Below, piece after piece: positions 4,473 through 32,784 of a stretch of DNA of 64,000 bases (the first letter of the stretch is position 1; each line of letters begins with the position of its first letter). The position numbers and the translations under genes were made by a program. This DNA comes from Escherichia phage vB_EcoM_UP17, in sequence record LR746137; one strand, given 5' to 3'. The notes under the pieces are model-generated. The model was not told the DNA's origin. It did no database searches and saw only the letters and a program-made list of their open reading frames with translations.

Positions 4473-5483
4473 ATGGCAGAAAGAGAGTATACAAAAGCTC
4501 CTGCCCCTAATTTAAACAGGGCATACAAATTATTAATTGGTTCTGCCACAAACACAATACAGAAGAGAACTAAGAACTCGGCATTTAAATCTACAGTAGA
4601 TTTGGATACCAAGTTAGGAACAACAGAAAAATCCTCTTCTAATTTGTATTTGTTGCAAGACCATCAAATAACCTTCAGTATTAAGAAAGATAATAACAAA
4701 GATCCTAACCAAGCAGAGATTGTAGTTTATAACCTTTCGGATGATACTGTTAACTATATAAACCGTGGTATCCGAAATAACTTGGCTGTTGCTTTAGCGG
4801 TAGGATACGAAGGTGAAGAGTTGGTTATGGTCTTCAAAGGAACTATCCAGTGGGTTAGTGATACTTTTGACTCGGTAGACAGGAAAACCACTTTACACTG
4901 TTTGGATGGCGGTATTAACATTGCAGAAGCAAGAACAAGCCGCAGTTATCCAAAAGGAACTAAAATCAAACGTGTTGTGACAGATTTGGTAAAGGATTTA
5001 GGAACTACAGAAGGTAATATACACGTAGATAATGATCAAACCTTATCCTCAGCAACAGCTATGTGTGGAAACACTTCACATTACCTAGAACATATTTGTA
5101 AAAGTATTGATCACAATGTGTCAATACAAGATGGATCTGTTTATGTCACTCCTCGTTCACAAATGTCTAGTGCACGTAGCGCCTACATTAGCCCTGAAAC
5201 TGGTCTGATAGGAAGTCCAGAACCATTCCACAACGATATAAAACCTACTAAAAAAGTTACCAAGTCATCTAAGAAGGCAAAGAAACCTACAGATGGTGTT
5301 AAATTCAAATGCCAAATGAATGGTGCAATATTACCAGAAAAAACAATCTGGTTAAAAAGCCGAGATTATGATGGTCCATTTAAAGTTGTTTCTGTTTCTC
5401 ACAATGGTGATAAAGAGGGTAAAGAGTGGGTTACTGAAGTGGAGTGTGTATCCGTGTCTGAAATAATGACTAAGGAGAAATAA
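4473..5483 (+). CDS. Baseplate hub-like protein (gpD/gp27-like by position)
   Basis: 336 aa ORF immediately upstream of the spike gene, stop/start overlap at 5483. Call is by synteny only. Confidence 0.4.
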   Translation: MAEREYTKAPAPNLNRAYKLLIGSATNTIQKRTKNSAFKSTVDLDTKLGTTEKSSSNLYLLQDHQITFSIKKDNNKDPNQAEIVVYNLSDDTVNYINRGIRNNLAVALAVGYEGEELVMVFKGTIQWVSDTFDSVDRKTTLHCLDGGINIAEARTSRSYPKGTKIKRVVTDLVKDLGTTEGNIHVDNDQTLSSATAMCGNTSHYLEHICKSIDHNVSIQDGSVYVTPRSQMSSARSAYISPETGLIGSPEPFHNDIKPTKKVTKSSKKAKKPTDGVKFKCQMNGAILPEKTIWLKSRDYDGPFKVVSVSHNGDKEGKEWVTEVECVSVSEIMTKEK

Positions 5484-26991: not shown

Positions 26992-26998
26992 TAAAAAA

Positions 26999-27018
26999 GG
27001 GAACCCGCAAAGGTTCCC
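26999..27018. terminator. Bidirectional rho-independent terminator between convergent blocks
   Basis: GGGAACC-CGCAAA-GGTTCCC hairpin flanked by an A-run upstream (26992-26998) and T-run downstream (27019-27027). Confidence 0.7.
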
Positions 27019-27054
27019 TTTTCTTTTATAAAAACTCTTTATAAATCAATAAGA

Positions 27055-27942
27055 TTAGAATGGGATATCATCGTCGAAGTCCATTGGAGGTTCTTCTTGA
27101 TTGCTTGGAGTTGGTTCTGGTTGTGGTTCAGGTTTCTTCTCTTCTTTCTTCTCTTCTTTCTTAGGTTGTTCTGCGGAACCACGAATGGCAGCAGCAACTT
27201 TATCAGACAGAGCCAGAACTTTACGAGCAGAGTCAATCAGATCTTCTACAGATACAGTCTTAATGGTATGGTCTTTACAAGCATTGAGAATAGCGTGACC
27301 AACAGATGCCCCAAGATCATAATCATTAATATCAACGCCACGAGATTCAGCAATTTCAGATTTCAGCGTGACAGTTGCAGATTGAACAACCCCAGCGATA
27401 TCGAAAGCATCGCCTTTAACACCATTACGAATCAGTTCCAGTGCACCATTTACTGCGTGACCAGTTTCCAGACCTACAGTATCACGTTTTTTATAGGACT
27501 GCTTAGGAGCAGCATCGTTGGAACCTTTATTGCCAGAAGATTTGTTAGACTTCTGAACACCATCGGTAGACAATACTGTAATACGAGATTTTTTAGTATT
27601 GTAGTAAGTCTTACCGCCTTTATTATCAACGCGATCAATATCAATACTTACTTCTACACCTTTTTCAATAGTGATCCAATTATCACCTTCTTTGACTTGC
27701 AGGTTTTCATAACCTTCTTTCAGTTCAATGTCACCAAGAGAAATCCAAACACCTTTCTCATCTGGTTTAGCACCTTTCTCTTTCAGAACAAGAGAAGCTC
27801 GGTGAGTTGAAACAATCGTTTTCCCTTCCCAATGAAAAGTTTTAGGTTCAGCGAATTTATCCAGTTTAACGTAGTCTACGATACCAGTTGCATAAGTTAC
27901 GGTTTTGCCTTTACGATCAGTTTCAGTATTAATTACGGACAT
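27055..27942 (-). CDS. ssb: Single-stranded DNA-binding protein with E. coli SSB-like acidic C-terminal tip
   Basis: 295 aa; KKEEKKEEKK/Pro-rich linker, then C-terminus ...SNQEEPPMDFDDDIPF, which closely matches the E. coli SSB tip as I recall it. Confidence 0.65.
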   Translation of the reverse strand: MSVINTETDRKGKTVTYATGIVDYVKLDKFAEPKTFHWEGKTIVSTHRASLVLKEKGAKPDEKGVWISLGDIELKEGYENLQVKEGDNWITIEKGVEVSIDIDRVDNKGGKTYYNTKKSRITVLSTDGVQKSNKSSGNKGSNDAAPKQSYKKRDTVGLETGHAVNGALELIRNGVKGDAFDIAGVVQSATVTLKSEIAESRGVDINDYDLGASVGHAILNACKDHTIKTVSVEDLIDSARKVLALSDKVAAAIRGSAEQPKKEEKKEEKKPEPQPEPTPSNQEEPPMDFDDDIPF

Positions 27943-27958
27943 TATTATCTCCTCTACA

Positions 27959-28351
27959 TTACATTAATTTTGCACAGAAAGAGCGGAGTCTTTCCATATC
28001 ATCTTGCTCTAACAGGTATTTACCTTTACCTATTCCAACTCCAATTTCACCATTAGGAAAATGAACTATTTGCACTGGGAAACCTCCGAGTTTAATTGTG
28101 GCAGCTTTGCCTTCTTCGTCTATAACGTTTCGGATTGTATCTTGCAGTGAAATGAATTCTTTGTTTGTAACAGTGGTTTCAATTATTTCAGATGTTTCGA
28201 CACGAGCAGTTAGCTTCTTGTTTCCACCTTGAATAACCAAAATTTGAAAATAAAAAGAGTTGTCAAGACCTACAACATTTTTCTCAACTAGTGTCAAACT
28301 GGTATAGTTTCCATAAACAGTTTCAACAGCTATCTTAGAACGTTCAGTCAT
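27959..28351 (-). CDS. Hypothetical protein
   Basis: 130 aa ORF in operon context. Confidence 0.5.
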   Translation of the reverse strand: MTERSKIAVETVYGNYTSLTLVEKNVVGLDNSFYFQILVIQGGNKKLTARVETSEIIETTVTNKEFISLQDTIRNVIDEEGKAATIKLGGFPVQIVHFPNGEIGVGIGKGKYLLEQDDMERLRSFCAKLM

Positions 28352-28396
28352 TGAATGCTATCCTATCATAAAATGTTTAATATTGTCAAGCTTTAA

Positions 28397-28990
28397 TTAC
28401 CAAGGAATATCATCTTCTTCCAATCTGGTATCTACTTGAGGTGGACGTGGAACCTTAACCTCTTTCACAAAACGAAGATATGGGAAACGTGTAGCAATTT
28501 TAATAACATGTTTGGCATCTTCTCTAACATCTTTGTGCAAGAAGCAGATCCCTGTTTCCAAGGTTGTTTCAAAATCTTTAGAATAATAACAGTCCTTCCC
28601 ATCAAATGCAGCCTGGCAGATGGAAAGATCAAACTCATTTAGAAAGGTTGTCATTACATTTGGGTCCATGATCATAAGGTTGCAAAGCTGACCGTCACGT
28701 TCAAACTCAAAAACGTGTTTAAGACCAGTGCCACCTTCATAACTATCAGAAGCCTCTTTGTTTCCTAGTTTACGAATATTGGTTCCCATTAAAGCAGATG
28801 CAATTAATCCTTGTATTTGTTCTTCAGTCCGATGTGCAGGAAGGGATGTATAGAAATCCAGATCACGTCCAGCAATATCAAGAATACGCCAATCACGAAC
28901 AGCACCGCCAGCCAAGACAGAATTAGGATCAGCGATCTTTAATACGGTAAGAATTTCTTTGGCAATATTGATTTGTTTTGATTTAGTCAT
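28397..28990 (-). CDS. Pol-beta superfamily nucleotidyltransferase (CCA/poly(A)-polymerase-like head) with SSB-tip-like C-terminus
   Basis: GGAVRD ... DLDFY (G[GS]-x-D-x-D nucleotidyltransferase signature); C-terminus ...RLEEDDIPW resembles the SSB tip. Confidence 0.5.
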   Translation of the reverse strand: MTKSKQINIAKEILTVLKIADPNSVLAGGAVRDWRILDIAGRDLDFYTSLPAHRTEEQIQGLIASALMGTNIRKLGNKEASDSYEGGTGLKHVFEFERDGQLCNLMIMDPNVMTTFLNEFDLSICQAAFDGKDCYYSKDFETTLETGICFLHKDVREDAKHVIKIATRFPYLRFVKEVKVPRPPQVDTRLEEDDIPW

Positions 28991-29201
28991 TGATACGCTC
29001 CACAGTTACTTTTACAACATCGTCCATATTAATCTCATCCCCCAAGACCTCAATAACACCTTCCTCATAAAGTCGAGCACATTCTTCCCACACTTCAGCT
29101 TCCGTCATTCCACCTGCAATCTTATTTGCAAGACCTTTAATAACATCTTCATTTTGTTCATCAACAAGAATTGAAACATTAAAGCTCACTAATTTACGCA
29201 T
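28983..29201 (-). CDS. Hypothetical small acidic protein
   Basis: 72 aa; overlaps the downstream gene start by 8 nt. Confidence 0.45.
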   Translation of the reverse strand: MRKLVSFNVSILVDEQNEDVIKGLANKIAGGMTEAEVWEECARLYEEGVIEVLGDEINMDDVVKVTVERIND

Positions 29202-29211
29202 TGTTTTCTCC

Positions 29212-29364
29212 TTATACTTCTAAACGGAAAGTTTCTTTAGATACAAAATCGTATCCACCTTTTTCAAGCCAGTCATTATAAACCTCATCGGCTTGAGACT
29301 CTATCATAAAATACCGAGTGGTAATTTCGTCTCCGACAATACGCACAATTTTATAGCAAATCAT
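29212..29364 (-). CDS. Hypothetical small protein (50 aa)
   Basis: ATG (plus CAT 29362-29364) to TAA (29212-29214), translated by hand as MICYKIVRIVGDEITTRYFMIESQADEVYNDWLEKGGYDFVSKETFRLEV; fills an otherwise empty gap. Confidence 0.3.
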   Translation of the reverse strand: MICYKIVRIVGDEITTRYFMIESQADEVYNDWLEKGGYDFVSKETFRLEV

Positions 29365-29378
29365 GATACCATTTCCCA

Positions 29379-29591
29379 TTAATCTTCCTCCAGATCAATT
29401 TCATTATAACAATGTATGCAGAAACCATCATTGTGCATATGTTGTTCATAAGACATATCTTTACCACAAGACCAACAACGGATATCCCCATCGTCCCATT
29501 CACGTTCTTCTTCGCCTTCAAATTCATCTGGTAGGTAAGGCATACCAAAGTAGTCTAAATCGTAACTCATATCTTCTCCTACCGAGTCCAC
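29379..29591 (-). CDS. Small acidic zinc-ribbon-like protein
   Basis: 70 aa; CWSCG ... CIHC Cys pairs, very acidic termini. Confidence 0.45.
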   Translation of the reverse strand: MDSVGEDMSYDLDYFGMPYLPDEFEGEEEREWDDGDIRCWSCGKDMSYEQHMHNDGFCIHCYNEIDLEED

Positions 29592-30157
29592 TCCTTACGT
29601 TGTTCAATATGTTCGAGCATATCGTTATACAATGTTTTAAGATGTGGAACAACTCTTTGATCTTCTGTTTCAAAAAACTTTGTAAGCTGTTCTGCTTTAG
29701 CTTTCAACCAACAAAGATGTGCTTGGAGTTCCGTATCGAAACGACCGAGTGTTATGATACGTCCTCCGATTTTAATATGGGCCTTATACTTCTTACGATC
29801 CTTCTCATAATTACATCCTACCATTTGACCTGACTTTTTTCTGTAGGCTAAAAACTTATTAAGATTTCCAGAAATCATTAAGCAAGTATCAGGGGAGTAG
29901 ACTCCCCCTCCCATAAGATCCTTATCAAGTTCCGAGTTTTCCCAGTCGTCCCAAGTTTCCAACCAAGAGTAGAAGTTGGAAAACAGCTTCCACTCTTCAC
30001 AAACCGTCACTCCATGGTAAACGACATCTCTTGCCTGTTGGCAAGATGAATAACACCTTCCCAACATTGCCATCCATTTCATATAAGCAGGGTGCATAAC
30101 CCCTTCAGGAGATCTTGCAGTAATGCTCCCATCAAAAACACCGTGACCATAAACCAT
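29579..30157 (-). CDS. AP2-domain DNA-binding protein (homing-endonuclease-associated type)
   Basis: C-terminal YKAHIKIGGRIITLGRFDTELQAHLCWLKAKAEQ resembles the AP2 fold; directly downstream of the polymerase gene. Confidence 0.4.
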   Translation of the reverse strand: MVYGHGVFDGSITARSPEGVMHPAYMKWMAMLGRCYSSCQQARDVVYHGVTVCEEWKLFSNFYSWLETWDDWENSELDKDLMGGGVYSPDTCLMISGNLNKFLAYRKKSGQMVGCNYEKDRKKYKAHIKIGGRIITLGRFDTELQAHLCWLKAKAEQLTKFFETEDQRVVPHLKTLYNDMLEHIEQRKEWTR

Positions 30158-30186: not shown

Positions 30187-32784
30187 CTAATGGCAACTCG
30201 CCCAGGAATTACCCACATCATATCCAGCAGTAAGCTGAACATTAAGATTGTAAAATTCTCCAGCCTTAGTAACAGCTAAGGCAGCAAGTTCACCTGCCCG
30301 ACTATAGGCTGTAAACCATCCACCTTTGGGAGATTCATGAATGTTAGCCCAAATTTGTCCCGTCTCTTTTTCCTTATTATGCTTCCATTCTTCAACTTTA
30401 GCAAGGCATTCTTTATCAATTTTCTTTTGTTCTTCAGGATCGTCTACTTTCTTCCAACCTAATGATTCAGGTGAAAACCATTTGAATTCTACAAGGTTAC
30501 GAGAAACTTCAAGCTGGGCTTCATCGTGATATGCAATCATTTGTTGCACGAAGTCTTTATTCTTCCAGTCATCTTTAAAGAAGTCAACACTTAGCCCTTC
30601 TTCTTCGATCATGTCATCATAAATAACCATTGCACGTTTAGCACAGATAACCCCACCACTTTGGAACAGAGAGTTAAGAATCGCGTGAGCAGAACGAGTA
30701 GGAACCTTACGACCGTCAATACCCAAAACATATTGTTTACCAGTCTTAACCCAAAAATCGTTTAAACGTTCTTTAAGACGCGCCAATGGGAATGCAGCTT
30801 CCCAGAAAGCATCGAACACCAATTGACCTGTAAACTTGTCGCTACCAATTGTTTTAGCAACCTTGTCGGCTTGTGCACCATAGGTAATACCATACTTAAC
30901 AGATTTAGCAGGACTACGTTCAAATTTACGTCCAATAGTTTCAGTGATACGTTTTGCCATCATTGTGTGAACATCGTTAGGTTTCTCTAACAACAGAGCG
31001 TTACAATATTCGTGTGGCTCCGGCTCGTACCGCCAACAGTAGTGTGATTCAATTTTTGCTTCCAAAGAGTCGAAGTCGTAGCCGATCTGGAAGTATTTAG
31101 GAACCTCTACACCAAACAAGTTACGCATCTCCCACCCAAACAAAGATGTGACACGAGGAATATTAGCTACAGATCTATGCTTCATACGAGAGGTTGCAGC
31201 ATCACATGTAGCGGCTGGGGTAGGAATACGCCCATCCGCCCTTACTGCGGCTAAGAAACCTTTATCGTATTCTTGATCTTCTTCATCTTCTTCCCAATCA
31301 GCACCGCCACCTAAAATAGAGTTCCTACGATGCTTATACGTTAAGTATTCTACAATCTGTGTAGCATAAGGGAATTTCTCACCTAAAGCTTGCAGGTTAG
31401 GACAGATTTCTTTTTCCTGACCTTTGGTAAAACATGGGTTAGTCAATACTTTAAGACCGCGACCTTTACCTTTTGCTATACGCTCTTGAATCTTCCTTTC
31501 CAGGGTTTCCGGTGTGCACTCCAGATGATCACAACGATCCTGACAAAAATTAGAAGATAGGGTTTGCTCAACGTAAGCTCGAATACCTTTCTGAAGTTCT
31601 TCCTCGCTCTTTTTAATCTTGGTGCCAGATTTAAGAGTCAAGTCTTTATCTTTATATTCAGACGGTACCCAACCTAATCCTACAAGCCAGTTTTTAATAT
31701 GGGTTGTATCGTTCAATGTTGCAGGAATGTTAGGATCACATAGAGGCTCATCTGCTGCAACTGGCAGTTTCCACTCTTTCCCCAACATAACTAACCACCA
31801 ATCGCCATCCCTCTCTTCCAAATGACCATCATGTTTCTTAGCAAAATTGATCATATGGTTAGTTGGCTCTAAGTTCTTTTTAATTTGCAACTTAGGTGGA
31901 ATAAAAGCCTTAAGATAACCTTTTGTTGCTGGTTTAGGTGGCAAAATAGGCTCAACAAGTAAACGAAGACGCTCCATTTCTGCATCCAAAAAAGCAAGGT
32001 TCTCTTCTGCTTGTTTCATGTTAAAAGCAAACCCACGGTGTTCCTGGCGTGTAATAATGTCTGCTACACGTTGTTCAAGTTCAAATGGACCTTCCCATTT
32101 ATCATAATCACCCCATTCTTCCATAAGGTAATTATATACGCTCGTATTGGCTTTGTTGTCATAGATACAGTAATAAAGCATATCCGCAGCAAAAGTCTTA
32201 AATCGATCTTCTTCTGGAATCTCTTTACGGAAATCTATTTTTACATCACCACCTGCTTTTCGAGAAAGTGCTGCCAAGCTATGTCCTGATTTGCCCTCAA
32301 TCTTTCGATCTGGGTTTAACACTTTACTCAAAATCAAGGAGTCAATAAGTTTTACCTTATTTTTGCCCCACGTATTATATTTAACACTGTAATCTAATCC
32401 ATAAAACAGTTTTGTAGCCAACCAGTCGTAGTTGATACCGTTGTGAGCCACAGCCATTTCAACCAGATATTCAGGCTTGTCTTTAAAATAACCTTCATGA
32501 TTAATAAAATCTGGGAAATCTTTTAGTTGAAAATGTGTGTAATCTTGCGCCACATACTCTTTAAGAACATATGTGTATTTACCATCTGACTCTTCATAAG
32601 GACGCCCATCAAAGATGTATTTAGGGCCATCGTGGAAAGCTACTATTTCTCCTGTTTCATGGTTCTCTAAGACAATACAGTGCATTTGAAATGTGTCTTT
32701 GAGACGATAAGGACTAGCTAAATAATCAATAGTGTCATTATTCAACAATCCGTTTGCTTCAATATCCCATGTAAACTTACTCAC
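30187..32784 (-). CDS. DNA polymerase, family A (T7-like), with 3'-5' exonuclease domain
   Basis: 865 aa; Exo I-like DIEANGL at the N-terminus; motif A-like GYDFDSLEAKI; motif B RSPAKSVKYGITYG; motif C AYHDEAQLE. Confidence 0.85.
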   Translation of the reverse strand: MSKFTWDIEANGLLNNDTIDYLASPYRLKDTFQMHCIVLENHETGEIVAFHDGPKYIFDGRPYEESDGKYTYVLKEYVAQDYTHFQLKDFPDFINHEGYFKDKPEYLVEMAVAHNGINYDWLATKLFYGLDYSVKYNTWGKNKVKLIDSLILSKVLNPDRKIEGKSGHSLAALSRKAGGDVKIDFRKEIPEEDRFKTFAADMLYYCIYDNKANTSVYNYLMEEWGDYDKWEGPFELEQRVADIITRQEHRGFAFNMKQAEENLAFLDAEMERLRLLVEPILPPKPATKGYLKAFIPPKLQIKKNLEPTNHMINFAKKHDGHLEERDGDWWLVMLGKEWKLPVAADEPLCDPNIPATLNDTTHIKNWLVGLGWVPSEYKDKDLTLKSGTKIKKSEEELQKGIRAYVEQTLSSNFCQDRCDHLECTPETLERKIQERIAKGKGRGLKVLTNPCFTKGQEKEICPNLQALGEKFPYATQIVEYLTYKHRRNSILGGGADWEEDEEDQEYDKGFLAAVRADGRIPTPAATCDAATSRMKHRSVANIPRVTSLFGWEMRNLFGVEVPKYFQIGYDFDSLEAKIESHYCWRYEPEPHEYCNALLLEKPNDVHTMMAKRITETIGRKFERSPAKSVKYGITYGAQADKVAKTIGSDKFTGQLVFDAFWEAAFPLARLKERLNDFWVKTGKQYVLGIDGRKVPTRSAHAILNSLFQSGGVICAKRAMVIYDDMIEEEGLSVDFFKDDWKNKDFVQQMIAYHDEAQLEVSRNLVEFKWFSPESLGWKKVDDPEEQKKIDKECLAKVEEWKHNKEKETGQIWANIHESPKGGWFTAYSRAGELAALAVTKAGEFYNLNVQLTAGYDVGNSWASCH

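Follow-up and report, generated by a model that had tools for sequence, protein, structure and literature searches.

Bacterial genome maintenance relies on SSB tips as its central recruitment signal; these tips are also a drug target and serve as a constraint when recombineering systems are chosen. The locus analyzed here raises the question of why a phage nucleotidyltransferase (NTase) should end in a motif resembling such a tip, close to an SSB-like protein that ends in one as well. The window, i.e., the whole 64,000-nucleotide stretch of Escherichia phage vB_EcoM_UP17 (LR746137) that was analyzed, represents the replication module of a Phapecoctavirus (phAPEC8-like, 99.3% identity); the phAPEC8 genome is approximately 148 kb. 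A single gene separates the NTase from the SSB-like gene, and the gene order DNA polymerase, NTase, ~130-aa gene and SSB-like gene was found in two genera and one metagenomic contig. The polymerase ORF is called DNA polymerase in ESCO37, VEcB, and FKP3, and PF00476 is faint or weak on its orthologues. The phAPEC8 annotation places a terminator at the same position as the hairpin that we read in the window sequence. The features of the locus are as follows.

30187–32784, minus strand: family A DNA polymerase heading the NTase/SSB-like gene block (ORF list and annotation in relatives)
28397–28990, minus strand: NTase, 197 aa, stand-alone and minimal, class II (CCA/PAP head)-like and Gad2-related
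28856–28909, minus strand: catalytic motif A of the NTase, GGAVRDW…DLD, residues 28–45, aligning to motif A of CCA-adding enzymes
28421–28462, minus strand: variable, disordered linker of the NTase, residues 177–190 (pLDDT and orthologue alignment)
28400–28420, minus strand: SSB-tip-like C-terminal motif EEDDIPW of the NTase, followed by TAA at 28397–28399
27959–28351, minus strand: 130-aa gene (phrog_16560), a candidate partner; the order NTase, ~130 aa, SSB is kept in VEcB, FKP3, and metagenomic contig L009
27055–27942, minus strand: SSB-like gene, 295 aa
27568–27942, minus strand: N-terminal beta (OB-fold) domain of the SSB-like protein, residues 1–125 (structure model)
27184–27477, minus strand: four-helix domain of the SSB-like protein, residues 156–253 (structure model)
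27058–27090, minus strand: SSB tip PPMDFDDDIPF, the same 11 residues as at the end of E. coli SSB (aligned with 1eqq and 7f2n)
26993–27018, minus strand: intrinsic terminator, GGGAACC-TTTGC-GGTTCCC and a T run, ending the replication operon directly after the SSB-like gene

The preliminary description, made from the sequence, had reported an SSB gene with a host-like tip. The tip is exact: the SSB-like protein ends in …PSNQEEPPMDFDDDIPF and the reference E. coli SSB (PDB 1eqq) in …APSNEPPMDFDDDIPF, the last 11/11 residues being the same, and TAA at 27055–27057 directly follows IPF, with the terminator hairpin next. The name “SSB” needs correcting, as the protein has no canonical SSB match in sequence. 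PF00436, the bacterial-type SSB family, gave no match to this protein; NF006533 (PRK09010) scored 23.2 bits where 260 is required and aligned with tail residues 254–295 only; and a PDB profile search matched E. coli SSB over the last ~23 residues only. The sequence thus resembles known SSBs through the tail alone, and the N-terminal OB fold is present only at the level of the modeled structure. The model shows an OB-fold domain, a linker, a four-helix domain (helices 156–172, 179–201, 208–223, and 232–253; pLDDT above 90), a disordered Pro/Glu/Lys-rich tail (pLDDT below 50 at residues 259–285), and the tip. The sole structural match of the four-helix domain was a designed helical repeat, which is uninformative. 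In 16 of the 120 listed homologues of this SSB family, the IPF tip is internal and followed by a conserved 15–16-aa extension (IPF-APIGLQY…), which complicates a simple “host-tip hijack” reading; a terminal Trp occurs in none of the 120.

The C-terminus of the NTase reads …RLEEDDIPW. Both tails consist of an acidic run, then [IL]-P, and then an aromatic last residue (EEDDIPW-TAA in the NTase, DFDDDIPF-TAA in the SSB-like gene), and both fit the SSB-Ct layout of a conserved tip on a disordered, poorly conserved linker. Residues 178–197 of the NTase are predicted to be disordered (pLDDT below 50 in the model). The linker has no invariant column, and the distance from the RFVxxx motif to the C-terminus is 16–23 residues in orthologues. 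DDIPW is retained in orthologues at 58–96% identity, and the linker varies in both sequence and length; the mean majority fraction among NTase orthologues reaches 0.95 in the last four residues, compared with 0.79 in the core and 0.57 in the linker. The same end is present in 10 orthologues and in about 64 near-identical phage genomes. Judged from these alignments, the tail appears to be under selection as a docking motif of a few residues, its conservation far exceeding that of the linker. In the sister genus Justusliebigvirus, the NTase orthologue at the same position ends in …NNEEFKI or …WDDDKI, without IPW, indicating that the core role of the NTase does not require the tip. A tip-like end was present in 13 of the 258 NTase family members examined.

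We defined a tip-like end as [DE][DE]x(0-2)[ILVMF]P[FWY] and scanned the whole phAPEC8 genome (the window and L002–L004), which holds 1849 stop-to-stop ORFs with a length of 35 codons or more. Only the NTase and the SSB-like gene carry such an end, and no further carrier was found among the 1849 ORFs. From amino-acid composition, about 0.004 tip-like ends are expected per 270 proteins (1.5e-4 for DDIP[FW]); two against about 0.004 excludes a chance origin of the tails. A mis-called stop or frameshift, which the preliminary description had named as a possible explanation, was also rejected, since the stop is real and lies directly after the motif in the window and in all orthologues; EEDDIPW is therefore a genuine, conserved SSB-tip-like end. 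There was also no evidence that the 3' end of ssb had recently been duplicated onto the NTase gene; the likeness in DNA is no more than the common amino acids entail. The end of NrdB, …DDEELDF, is the well-known R2 tail, and that of a 74-aa ORF, …DELQRLPF, is insufficiently acidic; neither was counted. The phage primase-helicase has no tip-like tail in the ORF-end scan.

Viral contigs contained at least 120 matches to DDIPW-TAA, compared with 11 for the same-composition control DDPIW-TAA. Among the 120 matches listed, 114 lie at the end of ORFs that encode 60 aa or more, and these ORFs form 26 clusters, i.e., at least 26 protein families in viral contigs. PHROG scans of ten cluster representatives identified several SSB families, one DNA helicase, one dNMP kinase, and one CobS-like ATPase. 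One viral contig (L109) encodes a canonical bacterial-type SSB ending in …FEDMDDDIPW, indicating that IPW occurs naturally as a form of the SSB tip. No member of the NTase family or of the phAPEC8-type SSB family was present among the 114 listed ORFs, and a literature search for DDIPW, PIGLQY, and DDIPFAP returned nothing relevant. The wide occurrence of DDIPW tails on other phage enzymes goes beyond the preliminary description, as does the remote Gad2 homology of the NTase.

The body of the NTase had been described as pol-beta-type (GGAVRD…DLD), and its motif holds; its ORF lies at the stated coordinates, on the minus strand, as does that of the SSB-like gene. GGAVRD occupies residues 28–33 and DLD residues 43–45; G28, G29, W34, D43, and D45 are invariant among 100 family members, and A27, A30, R32, and D33 are at least 92% conserved. 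The catalytic residues, whose absence on alignment the preliminary description had named as a refutation, are thus present, and the protein is, as predicted from sequence, a pol-beta-superfamily NTase with an intact catalytic site. It matches phrog_10174 and phrog_1614 and belongs to a family of ~190-aa stand-alone phage proteins with 1053 representatives, which is remotely related to the heads of class II CCA/poly(A) polymerases and to the NTase domain of Gad2. The AF2 model is only moderate (pLDDT 68). Its top PDB folds are the class II CCA-adding enzymes 3h39 and 5hc9 and the A-adding enzyme 1vfg; in Foldseek, TMq is about 0.5 and TMt 0.23–0.32, the NTase covering about half of the 415–445-aa CCA-adding enzymes. 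A direct search of the NTase sequence against the PDB gave noise only.

In hhalign, the NTase family profile matched Gad2 of phage SPbetaL7 with a probability of 92.8% (E 4e-7, residues 12–152), and the alignment covers the N-terminal NTase domain and ends at Gad2 residue 139. A precomputed PF26128 “Gad2” match is present on 43 of 120 NTase family members, and BLASTP of the phage NTase against Gad2 gave an E value of 0.001 over 79 residues in a single-pair comparison. The homology of the phage NTase to the Gad2 NTase domain is remote but significant at the profile level. Gad2 of SPbetaL7 is experimentally verified as an anti-defense protein and is predicted to be an NTase; it is necessary for the anti-Gabija activity of that phage, and a Brevibacillus prophage homologue is sufficient for it. 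Our literature search found no newer reports on the Gad2 mechanism. Both are phage-borne NTases with conserved GGA…DxD and FDF[ST][IV]C motifs. In contrast, Gad2 has 400 aa, including a large C-terminal region (~260 aa) that is missing from the phage NTase, reads GGAITS where the NTase family has GGA[PV]RDW, and carries no SSB-like tail.

The tails can be compared with three known systems. The phage SSB-like protein shares its final 11-mer with E. coli SSB-Ct (…MDFDDDIPF), and the NTase tail resembles it in the acidic run, the Ile-Pro, the aromatic last residue whose carboxylate is free, and the disordered linker before it. However, the last residue of the NTase is Trp and the rest of the protein is an enzyme rather than an OB-fold ssDNA binder, and the body of the SSB-like protein has no sequence similarity to bacterial SSB and bears an extra four-helix domain. 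In phage T7, the polymerase has basic patches for which two acidic C-tails compete, that of the helicase-primase gp4 and that of the SSB gp2.5, and the C-terminal Phe of gp2.5 is required for the polymerase interaction. As with the NTase and the SSB-like protein, a non-SSB replication enzyme and an SSB carry similar acidic C-tails there, and the phAPEC8-like phage also has a replisome of the family A polymerase and primase-helicase type. By analogy with T7, the family A DNA polymerase is a candidate docking hub. The analogy is incomplete because the phage primase-helicase lacks such a tail; furthermore, T7 has tails of a type other than DDIPF, and the tail here, a putative docking motif, is on an NTase. 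In phage HK620, the SSB's six final residues (NDYPPF) recruit the phage Sak4 protein to SSB-coated ssDNA, indicating that SSB-type tips are read by phage proteins. In that case the SSB bears the tip and the enzyme reads it, whereas in the phAPEC8-like phage the tip is on the enzyme.

The DDIPW tail on the NTase suggests docking onto the replication machinery. The explanation that we favor, on balance, is that the tail is an SSB-Ct-class docking motif which most likely tethers the catalytic module to sites that read SSB tails. The motif is not due to chance and is conserved far better than its linker, the catalytic residues are intact, the setting is a conserved replication module, and viral contigs encode SSBs and further enzymes of DNA metabolism with this tail. 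The acidic residues, Ile-Pro, and the aromatic residue with its free carboxylate, held at the end of a flexible linker, would dock a minimal class II-type NTase related to Gad2 onto the T7-like phage replisome (family A polymerase and primase-helicase), onto host SSB-partner proteins, or onto both. The NTase would then act at replication forks or on SSB-coated ssDNA intermediates, beside the phage SSB-like protein; its substrate may be a nucleic-acid 3' end or a nucleotide. We infer both the binding of the tail to an SSB-tip pocket or basic patch and the identity of the partner, and the tail fits docking to host SSB partners or to phage replisome proteins equally well. As Trp replaces Phe at the end, the pocket could differ from that of an SSB-tip reader.

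Other explanations concern the purpose of the enzyme or that of the tail. The current GenBank annotation of the NTase is of the tRNA 3'-end (CCA) type, and a role in CCA repair or RNA tailing, with a tail that is incidental or otherwise used, would agree with the motif A (GGxVRD…DxD) that it shares with class II CCA-adding enzymes and PcnB, with its top PDB folds, and with the 11 tRNA genes of phAPEC8. We consider it very improbable. CCA is already encoded in 11/11 of these tRNA genes, and the matches to PF01743 (13.8 bits against 23; E < 0.01 in only 16 of 100 family members) and TIGR02692 (12.4 against 438.8) are far under the cut-offs. The NTase, with 197 aa instead of about 400, lacks the neck, body, and tail domains for tRNA, and motif A alone aligns in the profile comparison with the CCA-adding enzymes 6ibp and 7otr (residues 6–46). 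Ribose and base are selected in class II CCA-adding enzymes and PcnB by two further motifs, B (RRD) and D (EDxxR). In a by-eye, moderately secure alignment to these motifs, the NTase consensus near residues 120–130 is F-x-x-S-I-C with no RRD, and motif D is not conserved across the family, positions 156–157 being variable and 161 His or Tyr instead of Arg. The tail is constrained more strongly than the core and is therefore not incidental. The earlier suggestion of a minimal CCA-adding enzyme is thus abandoned; the half-sized NTase forms a large family of its own, and the proposed HMM classification places it with neither the CCA-adding/PcnB enzymes, nor CD-NTases, nor MNT. The CD-NTase and MNT/HEPN-MNT classes were rejected as the NTase has no PADLOC match, and PADLOC-DB at E values up to 0.1 returned no family for any of the three proteins (NTase, 130-aa protein, SSB-like protein). 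A Gad2-like anti-defense protein is a more serious candidate, although we still regard it as rather unlikely. The NTase would be delivered by its tail to a host system acting on ssDNA or DNA ends, for example one that pairs a Gabija-type OLD nuclease with a helicase resembling UvrD, and would neutralize it. The profile match to the Gad2 NTase domain, the PF26128 matches in the family, and the anti-Gabija role of Gad2 argue for this role; the remoteness of the homology, the absence of the C-terminal part of Gad2, and Pfam Gad2 marks that are faint or weak where graded argue against it, as does a locus that is a conserved replication operon and not a variable anti-defense locus. Such a role is compatible with the docking that we favor and overlaps with it in part; the purpose of the enzyme differs.

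The tail itself may serve other ends. As a competitor or decoy, it would fill the SSB-tip pockets of ExoI, RecQ, RecJ, PriA, chi, and others, thereby blocking host repair and nucleases. It resembles the host tip, the orthologue ends NDFEDDIPW and EDFQDDIPW are even closer to the host 9-mer MDFDDDIPF, and where an extension masks the SSB tip, the NTase is the sole protein with a free one. A pure decoy, however, would not need strictly conserved catalytic residues, host-identical tips are already supplied by the phage SSB-like protein, and tails of this kind on helicases and kinases are more simply explained by recruitment; we regard the decoy as improbable. A decoy for the phage-SSB-sensing defenses Retron-Eco8 and DARNA is also unlikely, since both are activated without the SSB C-tail. 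The least probable of the explanations weighed here is autoinhibition, in which the tail would fold into the nucleic-acid cleft of the NTase until displaced by a partner or ssDNA. SSB-type acidic tails are described as binding their own DNA-binding sites (T7 gp2.5 and E. coli SSB), and the flexible linker is long enough for the tail to reach the active site. Nevertheless, the conserved feature is the IP-aromatic-COOH signature, beyond acidity, and the tail is undocked in the AF2 model.

A broader version of the docking explanation can be offered only tentatively, and we consider it possible but doubtful. DDIPF/DDIPW-COOH would be a portable label on unrelated phage enzymes, with the SSB hub as the organizer of a replication factory, and in the phAPEC8-like phage it would bring a Gad2-like counter-defense NTase to SSB-coated ssDNA. 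The carriers of the label so far are the Gad2-related NTase in the phAPEC8-like phage and helicases, dNMP kinases, and AAA ATPases elsewhere.

If the tail binds nothing, the finding is a curious conserved C-terminus on an annotated NTase. If non-SSB enzymes do carry the SSB signal, phage proteins that work at the replication fork could be predicted from sequence. The tail would also provide a handle, by deletion of five residues or mutation of W197, on about 1000 phage NTase clusters, and possibly an insight into how the anti-Gabija protein Gad2 works. Furthermore, phage replisomes would be assembled in part by competition of tails for shared sites, as in T7, far more widely.

The region 27000-29300 matched Escherichia phage phAPEC8 at 99.3% identity, and at least 80% of it was covered in 67 phage records; the matching phages belong to Phapecoctavirus (Stephanstirmvirinae). 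In related records, the gene for the 295-aa SSB-like protein is annotated as “single-stranded DNA-binding protein” and that for the 197-aa nucleotidyltransferase (NTase) as “putative tRNA nucleotidyl transferase / poly(A) polymerase”. Both belong to a minus-strand block in which three small ORFs lie between the HNH-like ORF and the NTase gene:

30187-32784, minus strand, family A DNA polymerase, first gene of the block
29579-30157, minus strand, HNH-like ORF (192 aa), after the polymerase gene and before the small ORFs
28397-28990, minus strand, NTase, a pol-beta-superfamily enzyme
27959-28351, minus strand, 130-aa gene (phrog_16560), between the NTase and SSB-like genes
27055-27942, minus strand, SSB-like gene, last gene of the block, followed by a terminator hairpin

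The two ORFs and their C-termini, …EEDDIPW in the NTase and …PPMDFDDDIPF in the SSB-like protein, were as given in the preliminary description. Both stop codons are genuine, and a mis-called stop does not explain the tips. E. coli SSB ends in the same 11 residues as the SSB-like protein. All stop-to-stop ORFs with 35 codons or more, 1849 in the window and the remaining phAPEC8 genome together, were screened for a C-terminal end made up of two acidic residues and, no more than two positions further on, [ILVMF]-P-[FWY]. Only the SSB-like protein and the NTase had such an end in the whole genome, where about 0.004 are expected from the phage amino-acid composition. Thus, the occurrence of two tip-bearing ORFs is confirmed and is not due to chance. 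The sole other acidic-aromatic C-terminus in the phAPEC8 genome was …SDDEELDF of NrdB, the ribonucleotide reductase small subunit (L002, 41244-42329, outside the window). This end corresponds to the R1-binding tail of R2 and so provided a helpful control for the scan.

The tail of the NTase was compared with those of ten orthologues of 58-96% identity. The mean majority fraction was 0.95 for the last four residues, DIPW, and 0.79 for the catalytic core, while the linker before the tip reached 0.57 with no invariant column; 16-23 residues separate the RFVxxx motif from the C-terminus. Some orthologues, ending in NDFEDDIPW or EDFQDDIPW, come closer still to the host 9-mer MDFDDDIPF. A conserved tip on a variable linker is what is typically seen when a flexible tether carries a short linear docking motif. 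The terminal aromatic residue was Trp in all compared NTases and Phe in all listed SSB-family homologues. The tip is not universal: it was present in 13 of 258 NTase-family members examined, in three separate sub-lineages, and the nearest relatives of these, which lack IPW, often have acidic-aromatic tails. At the same syntenic position, the orthologues of the sister genus Justusliebigvirus end in …LDSFNNEEFKI (L007, 4974-5567) and …LDDAWDDDKI (L008, 4989-5648). These tails combine acidic residues with an aromatic one, without the IP-aromatic end, and may represent a different docking motif. By evolutionary criteria, the NTase tail is functional.

The body of the SSB-like protein matched no SSB family, and Pfam returned nothing relevant. 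The alignments to NCBIfam PRK09010 and two SSB PHROGs were limited to the last ~40 residues, and a profile of 70 homologues matched SSBs of the PDB over the tail only. The name “SSB-like” is therefore reasonable but inferred. Nearly all of the 120 homologues listed end in D[FD]DDIPF, despite identity down to ~30% and differing body architectures, which marks the IPF tip as the most constrained part of the sequence.

In 16 of the 120 homologues listed, the IPF tip is not terminal and is followed by a conserved extension of 15-16 aa, …DDDIPF-APIGLQYGRNFLHCF and variants (L006, 4001-4933; L007, 6026-6973; L011, 2078-2584). The extension is absent from the window SSB-like protein itself; it was found by tblastn in 183 phage records, among them lambdoid phage HK75, whose canonical SSB ends in …DDDIPFAPVTLPFPRHAIHAI. 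Between the related phages L006 and VEcB, 6 of its 48 nt differ, all synonymously; therefore, selection acts on the peptide itself. With the extension in place, the free carboxylate of the IPF tip should be masked. Our literature search found no description of this extension. The SSB-like protein of L006 is 99% identical to that of the window, and a 164-aa HNH endonuclease gene (4905-5399) lies exactly at the ssb 3' end, between ssb and the tail-fibre gene, its start overlapping the extension. The equivalent position in the window holds only a terminator, and in VEcB a terminator and a methyltransferase gene, instead of the HNH gene, come after the same extension.

The order polymerase, (HNH), NTase, ~130-aa phrog_16560 gene and SSB-like gene is common to Phapecoctavirus, Justusliebigvirus and the metagenomic contig L009, whose NTase is only 32% identical yet ends in NFPDDIPW. 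P0241, another DIPW-ended family member, is encoded in a nucleotide-metabolism cluster, where its gene and the end of a DNA ligase gene overlap. Therefore, the NTase keeps company with genes of DNA replication and repair. In the two genera and the contig, the gene for the 130-aa protein is invariably placed between those for the NTase and the SSB-like protein. Family and fold searches gave the 130-aa protein no detectable assignment, and it is an evident candidate for a partner of one of the two tails. The matches of the 192-aa ORF are confined to the C-terminal part of HNH endonuclease PHROGs (phrog_953, positions 198-399 of 420). It is missing at the same position in the related phage ESCO37 and present in L006 and VEcB, and probably represents a mobile homing-endonuclease gene, either whole or as a remnant.

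The NTase is a pol-beta-superfamily enzyme, as had been proposed, with a class II motif A (GGAVRDW…DLD). An exhaustive profile search (E up to 1e-3) yielded 1053 cluster representatives, most of them stand-alone proteins of 175-220 aa. Across 100 representatives, G28, G29, W34, D43 and D45 were invariant, and R32, D33, Y84 and K164 were at least 92% conserved. The AF2 model was moderate (pLDDT 68; core mostly 70-94, tail below 50), and its best PDB matches were class II CCA-adding and A-adding enzymes, with a query-normalised TM-score of ~0.5 and half of the target covered. Only motif A could be aligned to CCA-adding enzymes and PcnB, at scores far under the family thresholds. Precomputed Pfam marks on the family pointed to PF26128, “Gad2”. 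Aligned with the published sequence of Gad2 (400 aa, phage SPbetaL7), the family profile matched the N-terminal NTase domain at a probability of 92.8% (E 4e-7). Gad2 is a verified anti-Gabija protein; its C-terminal 260 residues have no counterpart in the phage NTase. The link is one of remote homology, not of shared function.

E. coli SSB is reported to recruit partners via its DDDIPF tip. Phage HK620 SSB brings Sak4 to SSB-coated ssDNA through its last six residues. In T7, the helicase-primase and the SSB have acidic C-tails that compete for shared basic patches on the family A polymerase, and the SSB, gp2.5, requires its terminal Phe to interact with the polymerase; the replisome of the window phage likewise has a family A polymerase and a primase-helicase. 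The simplest interpretation is that DDIPW serves to dock the NTase at a site where SSB tips are read too, which would place the enzyme at forks or ssDNA intermediates. A counter-defence role like that of Gad2 is a credible alternative that docking would accommodate. It is less likely that the tail purely competes for host SSB partners or is autoinhibitory. CCA repair is also less likely: the suggestion of a minimal CCA-adding enzyme fails, because body and tail domains are lacking, the residues of motifs B and D, taken as those that select ribose and base, are not conserved, and CCA is already encoded in all 11 phAPEC8 tRNA genes. Assignment to the CD-NTases or MNTs was likewise negative. A tail acting as a decoy for SSB-sensing defence systems is unlikely, since neither Retron-Eco8 nor DARNA requires the tail of the SSB.

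A scan of IMG/VR for D-D-I-P-W-TAA gave at least 120 matches, and the single control, of the same composition with Ile and Pro swapped (D-D-P-I-W-TAA), gave 11 in the whole of IMG/VR. In the sample of 120 matches listed, 114 ended an ORF of at least 60 aa, in at least 26 clusters. One cluster representative (L109) is a canonical bacterial-type SSB sequence ending in …FEDMDDDIPW. PHROG scans of ten others revealed three SSB families; therefore, IPW is a natural SSB tip. The same scans identified a 601-aa DNA helicase (L042), a dNMP kinase (L044) and a CobS/MoxR-like ATPase (L117), besides several families of unknown function. On L010, the contig of P0241, a phrog_107 exonuclease (413-1486) ends in …DDSDALDDFDDF, a further replication or repair enzyme with an acidic, Phe-ended tail. 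Thus, SSB-type tips on non-SSB enzymes of DNA metabolism are not rare among phages; we found no description of them in the searchable literature. Judged from these sequences, an SSB-Ct-type docking peptide on a minimal Gad2-related NTase appears as a variation on a known class of tip, and there are signs that phage enzymes use the DDIPW label broadly.
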